IMG/VR virus record: IMGVR_UViG_3300035208_006553
Span: 44,380 to 108,379 of that record
Source of the DNA: a virus
Taxonomy: Duplodnaviria > Caudoviricetes
Length of the DNA: 64,000 nt
Strand: one strand, 5' to 3'
Position numbers and translations under genes: made by a program. Below are positions 4,313 to 44,968 of this stretch, in pieces (positions within the stretch are counted from its first letter, which is position 1; every line of letters starts with the position of its first letter). A model generated the notes under the pieces. It ran no database searches. It worked only from the letters and a program-made list of their open reading frames with translations, and had not been told where the DNA came from.

Positions 4313-5138
4313 ACAAAAAACAAGACATACTGATAAAAGCTTAATTAACTTTCCAGTAGTTTTTACACCTCTTATGATAACTAATCCTTTATATAGAGAT
4401 GTTAAAGGTAATGCAGGTCAGGCTATTGTAAGAGTTGATACTAAGCGTATAATAACAATAGCTTCTGAGTATTATGAACCATTAACTCATATTGATAAAA
4501 TTAATAATATGGAACAGGTTTTAAGAGATTTAGGTATAAATTTTGAATTGTTTGATATTAATATTGGAGGTGTATCTGGTAATAGAGTATTCCTTAATTA
4601 CATACTTCCTACTTATAAGTTTGATGTTGAGGGTGACATTTTTGTACCATTTATACAAATTTACAGTGCTTATGATAGATACCTTTCAACTGGGTATTAT
4701 TCAGGTTTATACAACACTTCGACAACAAGTGCAGTTATTGTTAGAAAAGGTTTAAATTTAGTAAAACGTAAAGCATTATGGGGAAATGTGAAATTTAATG
4801 ATAGTATGATAGATATTGGAGGATGGATTACTGAATTAGGAGCGGTGAGAAGAAAATTAAAGAAATTAAAACTTGACAAGAACGTCGATAATTCATCAAA
4901 TATAGTAACTGCAATAATAGAAAAAAAGAAGCATCAATTGAATTTTTATAAAGCAAAAATCTTAGAAAGTTATATAGAAATATGTGATTTTTCAGAATAT
5001 TCATTGTTAAATTCTTTGATGGATTACGTCACACACTATATGAATGATGAAAAAAAGAAACGTTCTTATGATAGAATACGACATGCTCAAATTTTAATTG
5101 GTGATAAATTTTTAAATTTAAAAGGGGGTTTAATGTGA
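4305..5138 (+). CDS. Hypothetical protein, DUF932-like
   Basis: AIVRVDT..I...SEYYEPLTH N-terminal pattern; divergent. Confidence 0.45.
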   Translation: MIKQKTRHTDKSLINFPVVFTPLMITNPLYRDVKGNAGQAIVRVDTKRIITIASEYYEPLTHIDKINNMEQVLRDLGINFELFDINIGGVSGNRVFLNYILPTYKFDVEGDIFVPFIQIYSAYDRYLSTGYYSGLYNTSTTSAVIVRKGLNLVKRKALWGNVKFNDSMIDIGGWITELGAVRRKLKKLKLDKNVDNSSNIVTAIIEKKKHQLNFYKAKILESYIEICDFSEYSLLNSLMDYVTHYMNDEKKKRSYDRIRHAQILIGDKFLNLKGGLM

Positions 5139-17080: not shown

Positions 17081-17785
17081 TTGATTGATCTATTAATTAG
17101 TTACAACGAACATCTTAATAAAGTCAATCAAACATTACAACGCCAAATAGGACAGAGAGATGTTTTGTTGCAAAATCAAAAAGAGAGTGAGAAAAAAGAA
17201 GCAAATGTTATAAACTTGCTTGGTAACATTTCAAAAGCTAAATTGTTATTAGAAATGGTAGTAAGGAGTACTGAAATAAGGGTAAAATCTTATATTGAAC
17301 CTTTCGTAACTGAAGCACTAGATTTCATTTTTAATCAAAATTTAAAATTTCATATAGTATTTATTGATAGAAGAGGACAAATAGAAGTAGATTTTATTGT
17401 ACTTCCTTCTAATAAGGTAGAAGAAGATTACCAAACTTACTTAAATGATGTAGTAACTTACGAACAAGAATTTGATCAGTTAGTAAAAATATACAGAAAT
17501 ATTAATTACTTTTATGGAGGAGCTGTTCAGGAAATATTAGGTGTAGTATTGAGATTAGTAATGATAGAATTATTACAAATAAAAGGACCTGTGTGTTTAG
17601 ATGAACCTACATCTAGTTTTCACGAGCAGTATGCAGCACGTGTTGGTGTATTTATTAAATCATTAAGTGAAAGGTTTAATAGACAAATTATATATGTTAC
17701 ACACAGTCATGCTTTAGCTGCTGCTGCTAATAAAGTATACGAAGTGAAAAAAGACAGGGGTATCAGTAGAGTAGAGGAAATTTAA
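17081..17785 (+). CDS. sbcC: Rad50/SbcC C-terminal half
   Basis: Coiled coil, degenerate signature YGGAVQ, Walker B/D-loop CLDEPTS, H-loop YVTH. Confidence 0.85.
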   Translation: MIDLLISYNEHLNKVNQTLQRQIGQRDVLLQNQKESEKKEANVINLLGNISKAKLLLEMVVRSTEIRVKSYIEPFVTEALDFIFNQNLKFHIVFIDRRGQIEVDFIVLPSNKVEEDYQTYLNDVVTYEQEFDQLVKIYRNINYFYGGAVQEILGVVLRLVMIELLQIKGPVCLDEPTSSFHEQYAARVGVFIKSLSERFNRQIIYVTHSHALAAAANKVYEVKKDRGISRVEEI

Positions 17786-17790
17786 AATAA

Positions 17791-18312
17791 ATGAAAGTTA
17801 ACTTAAAAATTAAAAATAGAGGGCCTTTTATAGTTGCTCCTATTCATTGTCCTTATAAAGTTCAAGAACAAGATATTAAGTTTGATAGTTATCAGAATGA
17901 ACAAGCAGACACAGATAAAGAAATTTTTACAGTTCATTCTTCTATTTGTCCTCTTTGTAAGTTATGTGAATTTATTCCTGAAATAAACGATACACAATTA
18001 GTTTTAAATACCGAAGGTTTTACAAAATATTTAACATTGTTGAATGAAGAAGTGTCAAAATCGATTAGAGGTCAAGTTCTTTATCTTCAAAAAGAAAATA
18101 GATTACCAATTGCAATACTTATAAGCCCGGTAATTTTTGATAGTATGTTAAAATTAACTTATAAAGATAGTCAAGATCAGTATTATTTAGCTTATTCTTA
18201 TTTTATTAATAATGAAGTTCCTATTTGTTATATAACTGGTTGTCCTGTTTACCTTTCTCGAAAATTAACTAAATCTCTTATTCAAGTAGTTGGCGAGGTT
18301 GAATGGCGTTAA
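17791..18312 (+). CDS. Hypothetical protein
   Basis: 173 aa ORF with Cys motifs. Confidence 0.6.
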   Translation: MKVNLKIKNRGPFIVAPIHCPYKVQEQDIKFDSYQNEQADTDKEIFTVHSSICPLCKLCEFIPEINDTQLVLNTEGFTKYLTLLNEEVSKSIRGQVLYLQKENRLPIAILISPVIFDSMLKLTYKDSQDQYYLAYSYFINNEVPICYITGCPVYLSRKLTKSLIQVVGEVEWR

Positions 18313-19147: not shown

Positions 19148-19333
19148 ATGTATCAGTCTGATAATATAAAAAATAAATTTAGATTAAAAATATTTTTATT
19201 GTTGAAGAAAAATACAGATCAATTTTTAGAAACAAAAAATGAATTAATAAAGAAAAATGTATTAAGACGGATAAACAAATTATTAGACTGTATTTATTTA
19301 TTTATTAAATCTAAAAGAATTAGTTTAAGCTAA
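19148..19333 (+). CDS. Small basic protein, paralog of the loop-encoded ORF at 22749
   Basis: RLKIFLLLKKNTD...RRINKLL.CIYL shared with 22749..22919. Confidence 0.6.
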   Translation: MYQSDNIKNKFRLKIFLLLKKNTDQFLETKNELIKKNVLRRINKLLDCIYLFIKSKRISLS

Positions 19334-21036: not shown

Positions 21037-21227
21037 GCCTAACGGCTGAGCCATAACCCGCCGAGCGGGAATTGAAAACTAAAATAGGAATTGAAAAATG
21101 AAAAACATTAACGATTGGATAACAGAAAATTTTCTTGCAAGCGAGAGAGAAAATAAATTAAATGATCTTAAAGAAATAATTTTATCCGACCGAGCAAGCG
21201 AGGTCGGTGTTAATGGCATCGTTATGC
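21037..21227. repeat. attC-like site
   Basis: GCCTAAC-GGCTGA-GCCATAACCCGCC ... GGTCGGTGTTAATGGC-ATC-GTTATGC. Confidence 0.8.
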
Positions 21228-21556
21228 CGAAAATTGGTGAACCGGCACTTAGTAACTGGACATTGGTTTGCAACTTGTTAGATGAGTTTCTGCAAGCTAA
21301 TCGCCACGAAGTTTTTGTTATAGCGAGTGAGCATACCGAAGGTAGCTCTGCGAACGGTGCGGTTGCGGACGTACAGGAGTTGTTAAGGGCAATAAGAGAT
21401 TTAGACCAAAGGGAAAGGTTGGTTCTCACTATGTATTACAACGAAAAATTAACGTTAAAAGAAATTGCATCTATCTTTGATTGGACGATTGACGCAACAC
21501 AAAAACAGTTTGAAAATATTATAAACAAACTAAAGATAGCAACCGCATCGCTATAA
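21098..21556 (+). CDS. Chimeric cassette ORF with C-terminal sigma-70 region 4 HTH (FliA/WhiG-like)
   Basis: AIRDLDQRERLVLTMYYNEKLTLKEIA; crosses two att right arms in frame; stop codon lies in the TAAC core. Confidence 0.75.
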   Translation: MKNINDWITENFLASERENKLNDLKEIILSDRASEVGVNGIVMPKIGEPALSNWTLVCNLLDEFLQANRHEVFVIASEHTEGSSANGAVADVQELLRAIRDLDQRERLVLTMYYNEKLTLKEIASIFDWTIDATQKQFENIINKLKIATASL

Positions 21557-21681
21557 CGTAGTTGCGGCTAAACTGCACCGACATAGGAAAAAATAATTAA
21601 ATGAATTATAAATTCACGCATATCATCAAATGCGAAAATCTAAGACACCGTAAGGTGTCAGATTTGAGCCGCTGGTTATGT
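21551..21681. repeat. attC-like site
   Basis: CTATAAC-GTAGTT-GCGGCTAAACTGCACC ... GGTGTCAGATTTGAGCCGC-TG-GTTATGT. Confidence 0.85.
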
Positions 21682-21691
21682 GGAAAATTTT

Positions 21692-21774
21692 GGAAGGTTG
21701 CGAGCAATGGCGCTCAAGCGGTCTTGAAAACCGTGCTATCGGCAACGATAAGGGTTCGATTCCTTAACCTTCCG
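21692..21774 (+). tRNA. tRNA-Ser (anticodon TGA)
   Basis: Acceptor GGAAGGT/ACCTTCC plus G discriminator, anticodon arm GCGGT-CTTGAAA-ACCGT, long variable arm, T-loop GTTCGATTC. Confidence 0.88.
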
Positions 21775-21910
21775 CTAGGTCGAGTTCGATTCTCGATGGG
21801 TTACTGACATGCTGGTGCGAATGGAGTTAGGTTCGATTCCTAATGATTACGGTCTTAGAAATAAGATAACTCTGAGAGCTGAGTATGACAGCCGGGAAAG
21901 ACCGGCGAAT

Positions 21911-21993
21911 GGAAGATTGGCAGAGTGGTAATGCAACGGCTTGCTAAGCCGCACAACAGAAATGTTGCAGAGGTTCGATCCCTCTATCTTCCG
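21911..21993 (+). tRNA. tRNA-Ser (anticodon GCT)
   Basis: Acceptor GGAAGAT/ATCTTCC plus G, D-loop AGTGGTA, anticodon arm CGGC-TTGCTAA-GCCG, long variable arm, T-loop GTTCGATCC. Confidence 0.9.
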
Positions 21994-22014
21994 CAAGATG
22001 CGAAAAATTTTTCC

Positions 22015-22219
22015 ACATAACGGAGTTGCCCATAAGCGGACACGGAAATTTAATAAATAAATTTGAGGTTACAAATGCAAGACGAAAAATTAAACGAAAT
22101 TAAAAGACGGATAGATGTTACTTACCAGGGGGACAGAAATCTTGCCGTAATGTTACAAGATGTTATTTATCTCTATAAAAAACTGGAAGAAAGTGTTCCG
22201 CTTGATGGGCTGGTTATGA
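22015..22219. repeat. attC-like site
   Basis: ACATAAC-GGAGTT-GCCCATAAGCGGACAC ... GTGTTCCGCTTGATGGGC-TG-GTTATGA. Confidence 0.85.
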
Positions 22220-22368
22220 CGCAAGCCGACTACTTAAAAGAAATTGAGACAGCCATAGAAAACACAGTTAATGAATATGACCATATATTAAATATGAAGC
22301 GATACCCGCAAGTTGAAGATATGGAAAAGTGGATTAGGAATTTGAGAGAAGCCATACAACCATTTTAG
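22063..22368 (+). CDS. Cassette ORF, hypothetical (likely ATG at 22075)
   Basis: Starts in att loop after GAGG RBS; crosses GTT at 22213 as Val. Confidence 0.65.
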   Translation: MRLQMQDEKLNEIKRRIDVTYQGDRNLAVMLQDVIYLYKKLEESVPLDGLVMTQADYLKEIETAIENTVNEYDHILNMKRYPQVEDMEKWIRNLREAIQPF

Positions 22369-22376
22369 GCTTGTCG

Positions 22377-22508
22377 GTATAACGGATCAGCGACAACCCG
22401 CAAGCGGTAGTTTAATAAAAACTAAATTGATAAAGGAATGATATATGAAAACAAAGAAAAATAAACCGACAAGCGATAGCGCAGTCGGCGTTGGTTGCGT
22501 AGTTAGTT
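22377..22508. repeat. attC-like site
   Basis: GTATAAC-GGATCA-GCGACAACCCGC ... GTCGGCGTTGGTTGC-GTA-GTTAGTT. Confidence 0.8.
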
Positions 22509-22720
22509 TGCCGAACGAAATTTTGATAGAGGTTGAAGGCAGACAAAAAAGAGTTTTAACGAAAGATTATGTAACCGCAAAGACTAAACAATTGCAAGAA
22601 TTTGGTTACACAAAATTAACAGAAGAAGAAGTTTCTTCTGAATTACAAAATATATTAAGCAATAAACCGCTTAATGTTATTGGGATGTTTATGAAAGATG
22701 ACATCGTGAGGTCAAACTAA
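22445..22720 (+). CDS. Cassette ORF, hypothetical
   Basis: Starts in att loop after AAGGA; crosses GTT at 22502 as Val; stop in next TAAC core. Confidence 0.7.
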   Translation: MKTKKNKPTSDSAVGVGCVVSLPNEILIEVEGRQKRVLTKDYVTAKTKQLQEFGYTKLTEEEVSSELQNILSNKPLNVIGMFMKDDIVRSN

Positions 22721-22925
22721 CGTAGTTGAAACTAAAGCGTGAGCGAACATGGAAGACCAATTGAGAGTAAAGATATTTTTATTGTTGAAGGAAAATACGG
22801 ATTTGTTCTTAACAACAAATAATAAATTAATAAGAAGAAACTCATTGAGGCGAATAAACAAATTATTGACCTGTATTTATCTATTGAACTTAAAAGAGCG
22901 AATCGCTTTGAGTTTTTAGTTATAA
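22715..22925. repeat. attC-like site with a complete 56 aa ORF (22749..22919) in its loop
   Basis: AACTAAC-GTAGTT-GAAACTAAAGCG ... CGCTTTGAGTTTT-TA-GTTATAA. Confidence 0.8.
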
Positions 22926-22950
22926 ATTTTTTGGCGGAAGGAGCAAGACA

Positions 22951-23136
22951 ATGAAAATTATATTAGTACCACATTGTAAAAAATGCCCTCACGGTGCGCA
23001 ATGGAATTTAGAAGGAACTGAATATATGTGTGGAAAGAAAACAAAAATTAATTCTGATAAAAATATACCGGAATGGTGCCCTTTGATGGAAGCAACGGAG
23101 TTCTTAAGAAAGGTTAATAGCCAAAAACAATTATAA
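22951..23136 (+). CDS. Cassette ORF, small Cys-rich protein
   Basis: CxxCP...C...IPEWCPL; own GGAG RBS; stop in TAAC core. Confidence 0.7.
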   Translation: MKIILVPHCKKCPHGAQWNLEGTEYMCGKKTKINSDKNIPEWCPLMEATEFLRKVNSQKQL

Positions 23137-23415
23137 CGTGGCGCGGGCTTACCCGTTTGCGGTGAATGAAAAACTAAATTAGGAGAAACAACAATGATAG
23201 GTTTTAACAGAGTAGCAAAATTTGATGATGGCAGATTGATGTATAGAAATATAATAACTAACGACTATACAAGGCTCTCTTTTGTGTATAGGGACGACAT
23301 TAAATATAAACCTTACCCAACTATGCAAATAACTTGTACAGGGTGGAGTTTTAGCTGGTGGAGGTTTTGGGTATGGCACGAAAAGAAGCAAATCAGGCTG
23401 AAACGCTAGTTAGCC
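23131..23415. repeat. attC-like site with partly mismatched (hybrid) arms
   Basis: TTATAAC-GTGGCG-CGGGCTTACCCGTTTGC ... GCAAATCAGGCTGAAACGC-TA-GTTAGCC; loop ORF 23194..23409 ends at the core. Confidence 0.65.
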
Positions 23416-23566
23416 AAGCCGCTTCTCGGGCGGTGTTGCTTGCGGAAATGAGAGAAGGATTACGAATAGCAATGAATAATTGGAAACGCTGTTATTATGG
23501 ATATGGGAAAGAAGTTATGAAAGAAACAAGCGAAGAAACTTTGGCTAATTTACATTTAGATGATGA

Positions 23567-43593: not shown

Positions 43594-44968
43594 TTGTCCG
43601 CACGAATTGCTTGTTTTATGCTTTTGCGGACGTAAATAAAAGGAGAAATAAAACGACACTAGAGAGATTTGAAGAAATATTTGACAACACAGAAAGCGAC
43701 CACAAACGACAAAGTAAGATATTTAAGGGACTTGAAATAATAAGAAAATATTTACCAGATGCTGATATTGAAGCTGCTGAACACGATATTATTTATGCGG
43801 CTGATGTAGATGAATTAATAGAGGCGGGCATAACAGAAGATGATGTAAAAGAACTGGCTAAATTAACTTGGCATATTGATGAGGATGCTTTGGCGCACTT
43901 TGCGTGATAGTTTGCAATAAACATAACATAAACTTGAGGTCTTTTTGATTTGCTGATTAAACCGTGAGAAGTGAACATGGATAATATTATGAATTATGGA
44001 CTAACATTTTATTGTGTGTTAGGGAAATGGAGTAAACCAAAAATACAGTGGATGAAAGCAACGAGAAGTTTGAGAATATGTTTAGGATTTGTTGCCATAA
44101 AAATTGGGTTGTATGATTTAGAAAGATGGGAAAAGAAAGTTTTAATTGCATATATAAAAACAACTGATAGCGACGAGTCGGTTTAACAAATTAATGGAGT
44201 GAAAATGTTTAGCAAGATTGAAAGATTAAAAAGAAAAGCTAAAAAGTATTACCAAGAATACAACCGAATACTTGATGGAATGGATTGCGGAGTAACATTA
44301 GCGTTGCAAATATCTTCCCGGTTGAGCATAGCGAAAACTAATTTCAACAATACTTTAGATGAATTGGCAAAGATCGATCCGCAATGTACCACGAAGAGAC
44401 TATGATAGTCAAAAACATGCATAACTGATCAGCGATTAAACGCACCGGGCATAAAAAGAGAGATTAAAAGTATAATTAACATATTAAACAATAAAATAGC
44501 CGCACAAAAGATAGGTGCCGTTCTTGATTATGTAGTTAGTTTTTGAGGAGCGAAAATATGCAATTACATCCAGCAACATTAATTCTATTGGATAAAGAGG
44601 ATATTATAGATGCTATTAAACAAGCAATTTATAAAGAATATCCAGAGTTTAGATCAACATACAATATTATCATTGATACGAAATTGGAAAGAGTAGAAGT
44701 AAGAGCAATTTGTTATACGCCCGTTAAAAAGGCAAATGATAGCGACGAGTAAAACTAACAGAGTTGGTTTTAAAGGGTTTTACGGAATAAACACTAAAAT
44801 AAAATTGAGGTAAAAATGTTAAAATGTAATAACAAATTTTGCTATAATAATTCAATAGCTGGATGTTCACTTGAGTTTGAAACACAAACTGATTGCGATA
44901 CATATAATGACTATAATGAAAGCAACCTTGTTGAAAACCGAGTTAGCCAAGCCGCTTCTCGGGCGGTG
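43594..44968. mobile_element. Array 2 of attC-like gene cassettes (partly decayed)
   Basis: ATTAAACCG(43956)/CGGTTTAAC(44179); GTTAGTTTT(44535)/AAAACTAAC(44751); full sites at 44419..44541 and 44753..44948. Confidence 0.72.

Follow-up and report, generated by a model that had tools for sequence, protein, structure and literature searches.

Two serine tRNA genes between complementary arms

We analysed a 64,000-nt stretch of phage DNA (hereafter the window), which covers bases 44380-108379 of a 108,379-bp IMG/VR record, and within it a 347-bp unit (21675-22021, + strand) in which two serine tRNA genes are enclosed by a pair of inversely complementary arms. Positions are those of the window, and features lie on the + strand unless stated otherwise. 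A preliminary description of this DNA had proposed that the unit is bounded by att-like sites, that it contains tRNA-Ser(TGA) and tRNA-Ser(GCT) and no credible protein gene, and that tRNAs are acquired and exchanged as mobile cassettes. The contents of the unit were as proposed: ARAGORN called both tRNA genes (tga and gct), which are the sole tRNAs in the whole 108-kb record.

Both tRNA-Ser(UGA) (21692-21775, no encoded CCA) and tRNA-Ser(GCU) (21911-21994) have the cloverleaf, long variable arm, serine anticodon and discriminator G of type II tRNA-Ser. The latter was recognized as a tRNA by Rfam at 57.3 bits, and the best Rfam match of the former was tRNA-Sec, a long-variable-arm model, at 38.1 bits, which is under that family's cut-off. 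The nearest database tRNAs were phage tRNA-Ser genes (80-84% identity). Comparison with L022, a JGI contig found by a 22-mer scan whose tRNAs are ~85% identical to those of the window, revealed one compensatory pair and one wobble change in tRNA-Ser(UGA) and six compensatory pairs in tRNA-Ser(GCU), so that every difference preserves cloverleaf pairing. Judged by sequence, both tRNA genes are intact and functional. The phage uses mainly TCT (36%), AGT (33%) and TCA (21%) among its serine codons, and the pair together would read TCN and AGY; a plausible predicted role of the pair would be to make up for host tRNA-Ser lost by depletion or cleavage.

The genes are separated by a 135-nt insert (21776-21910) with a short GC hairpin before tRNA-Ser(GCU) and two tRNA 3'-half relics (21780-21804 and 21827-21852), each of which reads as a T-arm followed by a 3' acceptor strand; ARAGORN drew a pseudo-tRNA in this insert at a relaxed threshold only. 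Relatives do not have the insert: joints 21775>21908 and 21775>21914 occur in the metagenome runs X8, X4 and X5, and the tRNAs of L022 are 4 nt apart by ARAGORN, with a similarly short spacer in the X4 and X5 contigs. Each of the open reading frames (ORFs) within the unit (21601-21807, 21809-21931 and, on the - strand, 21847-21996) overlaps the tRNAs, and we regard none of them as a credible gene. The frame opening at 21601 starts in the loop of the upstream hairpin described below, reads the right arm in the frame of a gene in the related contig L014 and then enters tRNA-Ser(UGA), which is suggestive of a leftover from a former protein cassette, although chance could also produce it.

The left arm (21675-21691) consists of GTTA followed by 5 nt and 8 nt and abuts tRNA-Ser(UGA) with 0 nt between them; the right arm (22003-22021), which follows tRNA-Ser(GCU) after 8 nt, consists of 8 nt, one extra T, 5 nt and TAAC. 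Their complementarity extends over 13 perfect nt, one extra base and 4 further nt. Among the 1276 GTTA..TAAC pairs lying <=450 nt apart in the 108-kb genome this pair ranks best, with 9 nt matched beyond the core, and the next best, which extends 6 nt, is the adjacent unit. A 13-nt inverted repeat spanning <=600 nt is not rare by itself (~7 loci in the genome vs ~4.6 positions in shuffled genomes), and the arm pair is significant because it fits a site design shared by a whole family; a chance repeat was rejected as its origin, since the arms match that design down to the extra T at the consensus position. A common repeat was rejected as well, the 10 IMG/VR matches to the arm being all single and about as many as expected by chance. 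When the segment 21557-22020 was closed at TAA|C into a hypothetical circle, the junction folded into one continuous imperfect hairpin.

A strand-specific family of co-varying hairpin sites

The tRNA unit lies within an array core (21040-23137) of alternating units of two types, Y and Z, with a GC content of 36-37% vs ~29-30% around it. The Y units occupy 21040-21224, 21554-21678, 22018-22216, 22380-22505 and 22718-22922, the Z units occupy 21317-21557, 21675-22021, 22213-22383, 22502-22721 and 22919-23137, and degenerate sites continue outward to ~19.1 kb and ~24.0 kb. A Y unit is a hairpin made of TAAC, 6 nt, a 6-nt stem, a further stem, the loop, the returning stem, an extra G, the 6-nt stem, 2 nt and GTTA, and its loop contains a GAGG ribosome-binding site, an ATG and the first codons of a gene, together with conserved A/T-rich stretches. 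A Z unit runs from GTTA through 5 nt and 8 nt to the cargo, and from there through 8 nt, an extra T and 5 nt to TAAC. There is one gene per TAAC-to-TAAC unit; it ends at or near TAAC, usually with the TAA of that core as stop codon, and the next gene begins ~55-65 nt further on. The arms of the tRNA unit are thus a regular Z repeat of this family, which bears out the bounded architecture proposed for it.

Immediately upstream of the tRNAs, the Y hairpin at 21554-21678 (TAAC, 6-nt spacer, 6+6-nt stem, loop, stem with extra bases, 2-nt spacer, GTTA) has 9 matched nt in the core-pair scan and scores 99.5 bits with R1, a covariance model of the Y site; if each TAAC-to-TAAC segment carries one gene, it forms the 5' part of a tRNA cassette at 21557-22020. 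The next Y hairpin (22018-22216; R1 53.6 bits), whose loop contains a ribosome-binding site and the first ~46 codons of the ORF at 22075-22368, has 13 matched nt and is the top of the 1279 TAAC..GTTA pairs that the scan retrieved from the genome with spacers of 5-7 and 2-3 nt. The four best of these 1279 pairs are the neighbouring hairpins 21040/21221, 21554/21675, 22018/22213 and 22718/22919 and, together with the two best of the 1276 GTTA..TAAC pairs, they are consecutive sites at 21040-22922. From these rankings the core at 21040-23137 emerges as a chain, in which each core pairs to the left with one partner and to the right with another.

The same organization was found in other genomes. 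Searching for homologues of the sigma-like ORF at 21098-21556 yielded the contigs L014-L021, which carry rows of small same-strand genes, and five of them (L014, L015, L016, L020 and L021) contain unbroken Z,Y,Z,Y chains. Including the window phage and related contigs from landfill and groundwater, the family amounts to ~60 co-varying hairpin sites with TAAC and GTTA cores, which link small genes into a hypervariable array. Each of 28 unique Y sites has 8-13 nt paired with its own partner vs mostly 0-5 nt with the partners of other sites, and the extra base is a G on the gene strand in 23 of the 28, at the modal position in 16. In 12 aligned short sites, 85.6% of the cells pair vs 70.6% in shuffles, the cells changed on both sides number 32 vs 11.1 expected (0/500 shuffles), and sliding the partner as a control left 29-43% of the cells paired. 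R1 matches the gene strand only, both in the window (sites at 21549, 22375, 22013 and 21035) and in a 32.8-kb IMG/VR contig, where it finds at least 10 sites. The reading frame of the right arms differs from gene to gene, and the conservation of the arms therefore operates at the level of the nucleic acid. The arms that bound the tRNA unit belong to a real, co-varying and strand-specific family of hairpin sites, which organizes a modular gene array.

Shared slots, mosaic arrays and the proposed mobility of the tRNA pair

A counterpart of the tRNA unit is in L014, whose segment 4604-4965 aligns with the window over the Y hairpin, over the 9 nt that follow this hairpin and over the 9 nt that precede the next TAAC. 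The homologous hairpin (4609-4734) differs from that at 21554-21678 by compensatory changes in stem 1, the left 9 nt recur at L014 4731 and the right 9 nt at L014 4951-4959, 225 nt later, and the interior holds a 95-amino-acid ORF unrelated to the tRNAs. Flanked as they are by identical 9-nt arms behind homologous Y hairpins, the tRNA pair and the protein gene represent alternative cargos of one slot.

Other parts of the array are shared in a similarly modular way. L016 2604-2809 corresponds to window 22717-22922, exactly from TAAC to GTTA; in L014 an arm like that at 44942 is joined at GTTA to a unit like that at 21317; and the segment shared with L015 (3380-3640) stops at 21045. Across arrays, the ends of BLAST segments fall inside the core 11 times vs 1.5 expected, a 7-fold enrichment. 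Nine metagenome contigs from two runs diverge just before 21317, and metagenome contigs keep the ends of units with differing interiors, the bins that contain junctions having a several-fold higher summed depth; stretches of X4, X5 and X8 without contig cover and short-sided joints (e.g. 18920>24289 and 22940>21068) were left out of the evidence. The sigma-70 region-4 protein encoded at 21098-21556 is itself a mosaic, made of an N-terminal piece of 46 amino acids, a middle of 18 amino acids and a C-terminal sigma region-4 part, which occur separately and fused to other partners in the metagenome proteins P0002-P0005, and the breaks in its gene lie at GTTA cores (21221, 21317) or near 21370.

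The cargo of sister arrays, which includes MT-A70 methylases, appears to be of the counter-defence type. One of these arrays, on the reverse strand of IMG/VR 3300037067_010064 (~3-15 kb), exceeds 10 kb and encodes a C5 cytosine methylase, an RNA-repair nucleotidyltransferase of the RlaP family, two RAMP-superfamily proteins and a PAPS-reductase-like protein. Units of this array are also present in the same kind of hairpin array on JBBACM010000048.1 (7168 nt, low coverage), a contig found via a match to one hairpin sequence and binned in a metagenome-assembled genome of Candidatus Paceibacterota. This match was rejected as a lead to the host: the sites were confined to that contig, none being found in the 150 other genomes of the class that were searched, and the assembled genome had no match to the tRNAs. 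The contig is probably phage DNA within the bin and so gives no evidence on the host, and three tyrosine recombinases elsewhere in the same assembled genome were discarded as candidates for the array enzyme, being unlinked to the array.

Within the window, a second small array of the same site family lies at 44417-44945 (Y 44417-44543, Z 44535-44759, Y 44756-44945; R1 40.7 bits). An identical 27-nt stretch is common to 23409-23435 and 44942-44968, 21 kb apart and with diverged flanks; it starts at a GTTA core and encodes VSQAASRAV in two distinct genes. Separately, the paralogous small ORFs at 19163-19302 and 22746-22885 are 77% identical over 140 nt, one in the GC-richer array and the other in AT-rich DNA without clear arms, and the AT-rich copy is possibly an older, ameliorated cassette.

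We consider it about an even chance that the 347-bp unit is one cargo slot of a hairpin-bounded, integron-like array in a large AT-rich phage, and that in this slot two tRNA-Ser genes have replaced a protein gene. Units would be exchanged by recombination of folded single strands at the hairpin sites, as in integrons, by an enzyme which, not being encoded in the 108 kb, could come from the host or from the missing ~39% of the genome. The tRNA pair would have taken the place of the protein-coding body in a pre-existing cassette, would serve translation or counter-defence, and might also spread by homologous recombination within the tRNA genes. The proposal that tRNAs travel as mobile cassettes is in this respect only partly upheld: the slot shared with L014, the modular array, the breakpoints in the cores and the occurrence of the tRNA pair with at least three sets of flanks agree with it, and neither movement of the unit itself nor, in the 108-kb record, a recombinase was observed.

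Several observations weigh against site-specific mobility of the tRNA pair. Searches of the 108-kb record yielded neither a Phage_integrase (PF00589) nor a Phage_int_SAM_1 (PF02899) match at E <= 1, and neither a Resolvase nor a Y1 transposase domain; Phage_integrase (PF00589) was likewise not found in the 32.8-kb relative. No further instance of the complete, two-armed unit turned up in IMG/VR or the single JGI match, and exact-pattern scans of IMG/VR for the 5' half of the tRNA, the X8-type left flank and the downstream hairpin returned nothing. Neither a precise empty site nor a circle was found for the unit, a circle-type joint being absent among the joints listed; what was found is the slot in L014 with its different cargo. 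L022, the closest relative, is identical to the window from 21114 to ~21734 save one mismatch and then diverges inside tRNA-Ser(UGA), which indicates that the exchange between the two was homologous and not site-specific. This contig also comes close to a relative with the tRNAs at the same locus and no flanking cores: it retains the left arm, but neither the right arm nor any TAAC site follows the tRNAs, whose downstream neighbours are unrelated, AT-rich genes. In the X8 contig, window-type tRNAs only one base apart stand behind a different left flank, which resembles the left arm of another Y hairpin.

Further points concern the sites themselves. BLAST segment ends also accumulate 6-10 nt from the core (15 vs 2.8 expected), at the inner ends of the arms, and with two classes of breaks a single G|TT crossover explains the core class only. 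Moreover, the 8-nt inner arm of the tRNA unit forms a palindrome of its own and a similar A/T run follows the L022 tRNAs, so the flanks of the tRNAs may contribute some of the complementarity. Finally, P12002L_attC1 of Polaribacter phage P12002L, the nearest single published site, which we located independently at NC_028924 30008-30056 and which has the long and short spacers of the window sites, had been called by HattCI and was the one failure among the six phage sites tested with IntI1, of which the enzyme recombined five (Qi et al. 2023, PMC9892861). No match to R1 was found in P12002L.

Alternatively, the hairpins could be transcription and translation signals, namely terminator, promoter and ribosome-binding-site modules, like the promoter early stem-loops (PeSLs) of T4-type phages, the units being shuffled by homology or microhomology only, with the tRNA pair as a passenger and no site-specific excision or integration. 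We regard this as possible, on balance rather doubtful. Modular shuffling by PeSLs has been published for T4-type phages, as mobile regulatory cassettes (Arbiol et al. 2010, PMC2839356; Comeau et al. 2014, PMC4122927). There, too, large lytic phages have hyperplastic regions in which small accessory ORFs lie, each bordered by copies of a motif made of a stem-loop and expression signals, and modules are shuffled between relatives, all of which resembles the present array. The conserved A/T-rich stretches, GAGG ribosome-binding site and start codon in the Y loops fit such signals, identical arms in differing contexts could act as homology patches, and the many breakpoints at arm ends outside the core, the break between the window and L022 inside a tRNA gene, and the failure to find a recombinase in the 108-kb record or the 32.8-kb relative are all as this model would have them. 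On the other hand, PeSLs are homology patches conserved in sequence with a local stem-loop, whereas here only 4 nt are universal (with a few conserved spacer bases), the arms co-vary pairwise over long range with no single kept sequence, and the extra bases stand at fixed positions on one strand. Right arms that extend into ORFs in differing frames favour a folded-strand element over a linear signal, the 7-fold enrichment of breakpoints inside the 4-nt core is foreign to the model, and Z arms around coding bodies would make no sense as terminators or promoters.

The arms could also pair in the transcript, as do the processing stems of rRNA, to form an RNase III-type stem that frees a dicistronic tRNA precursor. 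Their proximity to the tRNAs (0 nt and 8 nt) would suit this, and the minimum-free-energy fold of 21660-22040, whose z-score is -2.64 over its full length, does close the stem. Arms of the same 9+1+8 design, however, surround coding bodies in ~30 other units, whose mRNA would be destroyed by such cleavage; in L014 a protein gene lies between the same 9-nt arms, and L022 and the X8 contig keep intact tRNA pairs without one arm; we find this account highly improbable. Less remote, though still unlikely, is a decayed relic, in which illegitimate recombination captured a formerly larger cluster of phage tRNAs within a dead cassette, the arms are leftovers, and the unit and its array are no longer active in this phage. 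The two tRNA 3'-half relics between the genes, degenerate flanking cores (e.g. 20623/20812) together with the AT-rich paralogues mentioned above, and again the failure to find a recombinase in the 108-kb record would be the traces of such decay. Against it, the arms of the tRNA unit deviate from perfect pairing only by the consensus extra base, five Y pairs in a row and five Z pairs in a row have been preserved, neither tRNA gene is damaged and both show compensatory substitutions, and near-identical modules in different combinations in several metagenomes point to recent exchange.

Known integrons, phage tRNA clusters and the genomic setting

Consistently with the reading of the unit as a slot in an integron-like array, the window shares much with the integrase-less attC clusters (CALINs) of virulent phages, its closest published relatives. 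Imperfect hairpins with terminal AAC/GTT boxes lie between small same-strand genes, structure is kept while sequence varies, extrahelical bases lie on one arm, methylases are typical cargo, and pairing between the bases that follow one GTT and those ahead of the next AAC leaves the footprint of a circular intermediate. The cores TAAC and GTTA do not vary among the aligned sites (12/12), with a loose fit to RYYY/RRRY (R'' RYYYAAC, R' GTTRRRY), and the extra G lies 8 nt from GTTA with a second extra base 3 bp on. With >10 sites within 4 kb and no integrase found, the region would be a CALIN if its sites count as attC, which hinges on their geometry and on recognition by the curated attC covariance model. 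A canonical attC site has a roughly symmetric unpaired central spacer and a length of ~57-141 nt, whereas the Y sites have 6 nt on the 5' arm (19/28) vs 2 nt on the 3' arm (16/28), that is, an internal loop of 6x2 nt, and hairpins of 121-408 nt (<=131 nt in 10/28) with the gene start inside the loop. The unit ends pair over ~17 bp (a 9-bp box plus 8 bp with an extra base) rather than 7, and breaks occur at TAAC and GTTA cores and at arm ends, unlike in classical cassettes. Unlike a complete integron, the array has no IntI, attI or Pc promoter beside it; the record being ~61% complete, the absence of a recombinase applies to these 108 kb.

Seventeen integrase-less attC clusters, with methylases as recurrent cargo, have been reported from phage genomes (Qi et al. 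2023, PMC9892861). The oligonucleotide of PH101_attC1, an IntI1-active site, has 6x6 spacers and a 3' arm in which 8 nt are followed by G, by 3 nt and by one extra base, which by inspection is the layout of the gene strand here. This match of the 3' arm implies that the gene strand reads like the bottom strand of attC, so that the genes would be oriented opposite to those of classical cassettes. The word tRNA occurs 0 times in that study (PMC9892861), and our literature search found no report of tRNA genes as cassette cargo. The adjacent tRNA genes and decayed tRNA relics in an accessory region are otherwise like the tRNA clusters of large phages (T4, T5), from which the present pair differs in comprising just two tRNAs, both for serine, enclosed by cassette-type arms in a hairpin array. 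Such clusters are presumed to supply codons or to replace tRNAs cut by host nucleases.

Integron cassettes are known for bacterial protein genes, with a few attC clusters reported in phages. If the tRNA unit is a cassette, it would represent the first case of paired tRNA genes as the cargo of a site-specific gene cassette. If the arrays are active, they would provide large lytic phages with a plug-in rack of counter-defence functions, e.g. spare tRNAs against tRNA-cutting defences, and would extend site-specific gene capture beyond IntI. In its widest form, namely that phages of landfill and groundwater communities run an integron-like system of their own, with a bipartite ~17+12-bp hairpin and a non-IntI recombinase, through which they trade methylases, counter-defence genes and tRNA genes, the proposal is a tentative one that we regard as possible, though less likely than not. 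Read more cautiously, the locus is a clear and testable case of a slot in which either a protein gene or a tRNA pair sits between identical 9-nt arms behind a homologous hairpin.

The record has a CheckV completeness of 61% and a GC content of ~30%, and every long ORF is on the + strand. Near-identical DNA is present in landfill and groundwater metagenomes from several studies; among isolate phages there was no match to the window beyond the tRNA level, and a search with the flanking proteins in IMG/VR gave no useful loci. Genes for GroEL, a UvsX-like recombinase, the large terminase and a PurZ/PurA-like enzyme are encoded in the record. An ORF at 40642-41799 matches a PHROG annotated as adenylosuccinate synthetase of the 2-aminoadenine pathway (PurZ-like; E 1e-55), and the phage DNA may accordingly be modified. 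Two other repeats complete the picture of the window: a 17-nt perfect inverted repeat outside the array (17371-17387 and 17939-17955, ~570 nt apart), the longest such repeat in the genome, and, at 34302-64000, matches to a motif of the type GTTATCTGG that recur at 60-nt spacing and are unrelated to the tRNA unit.

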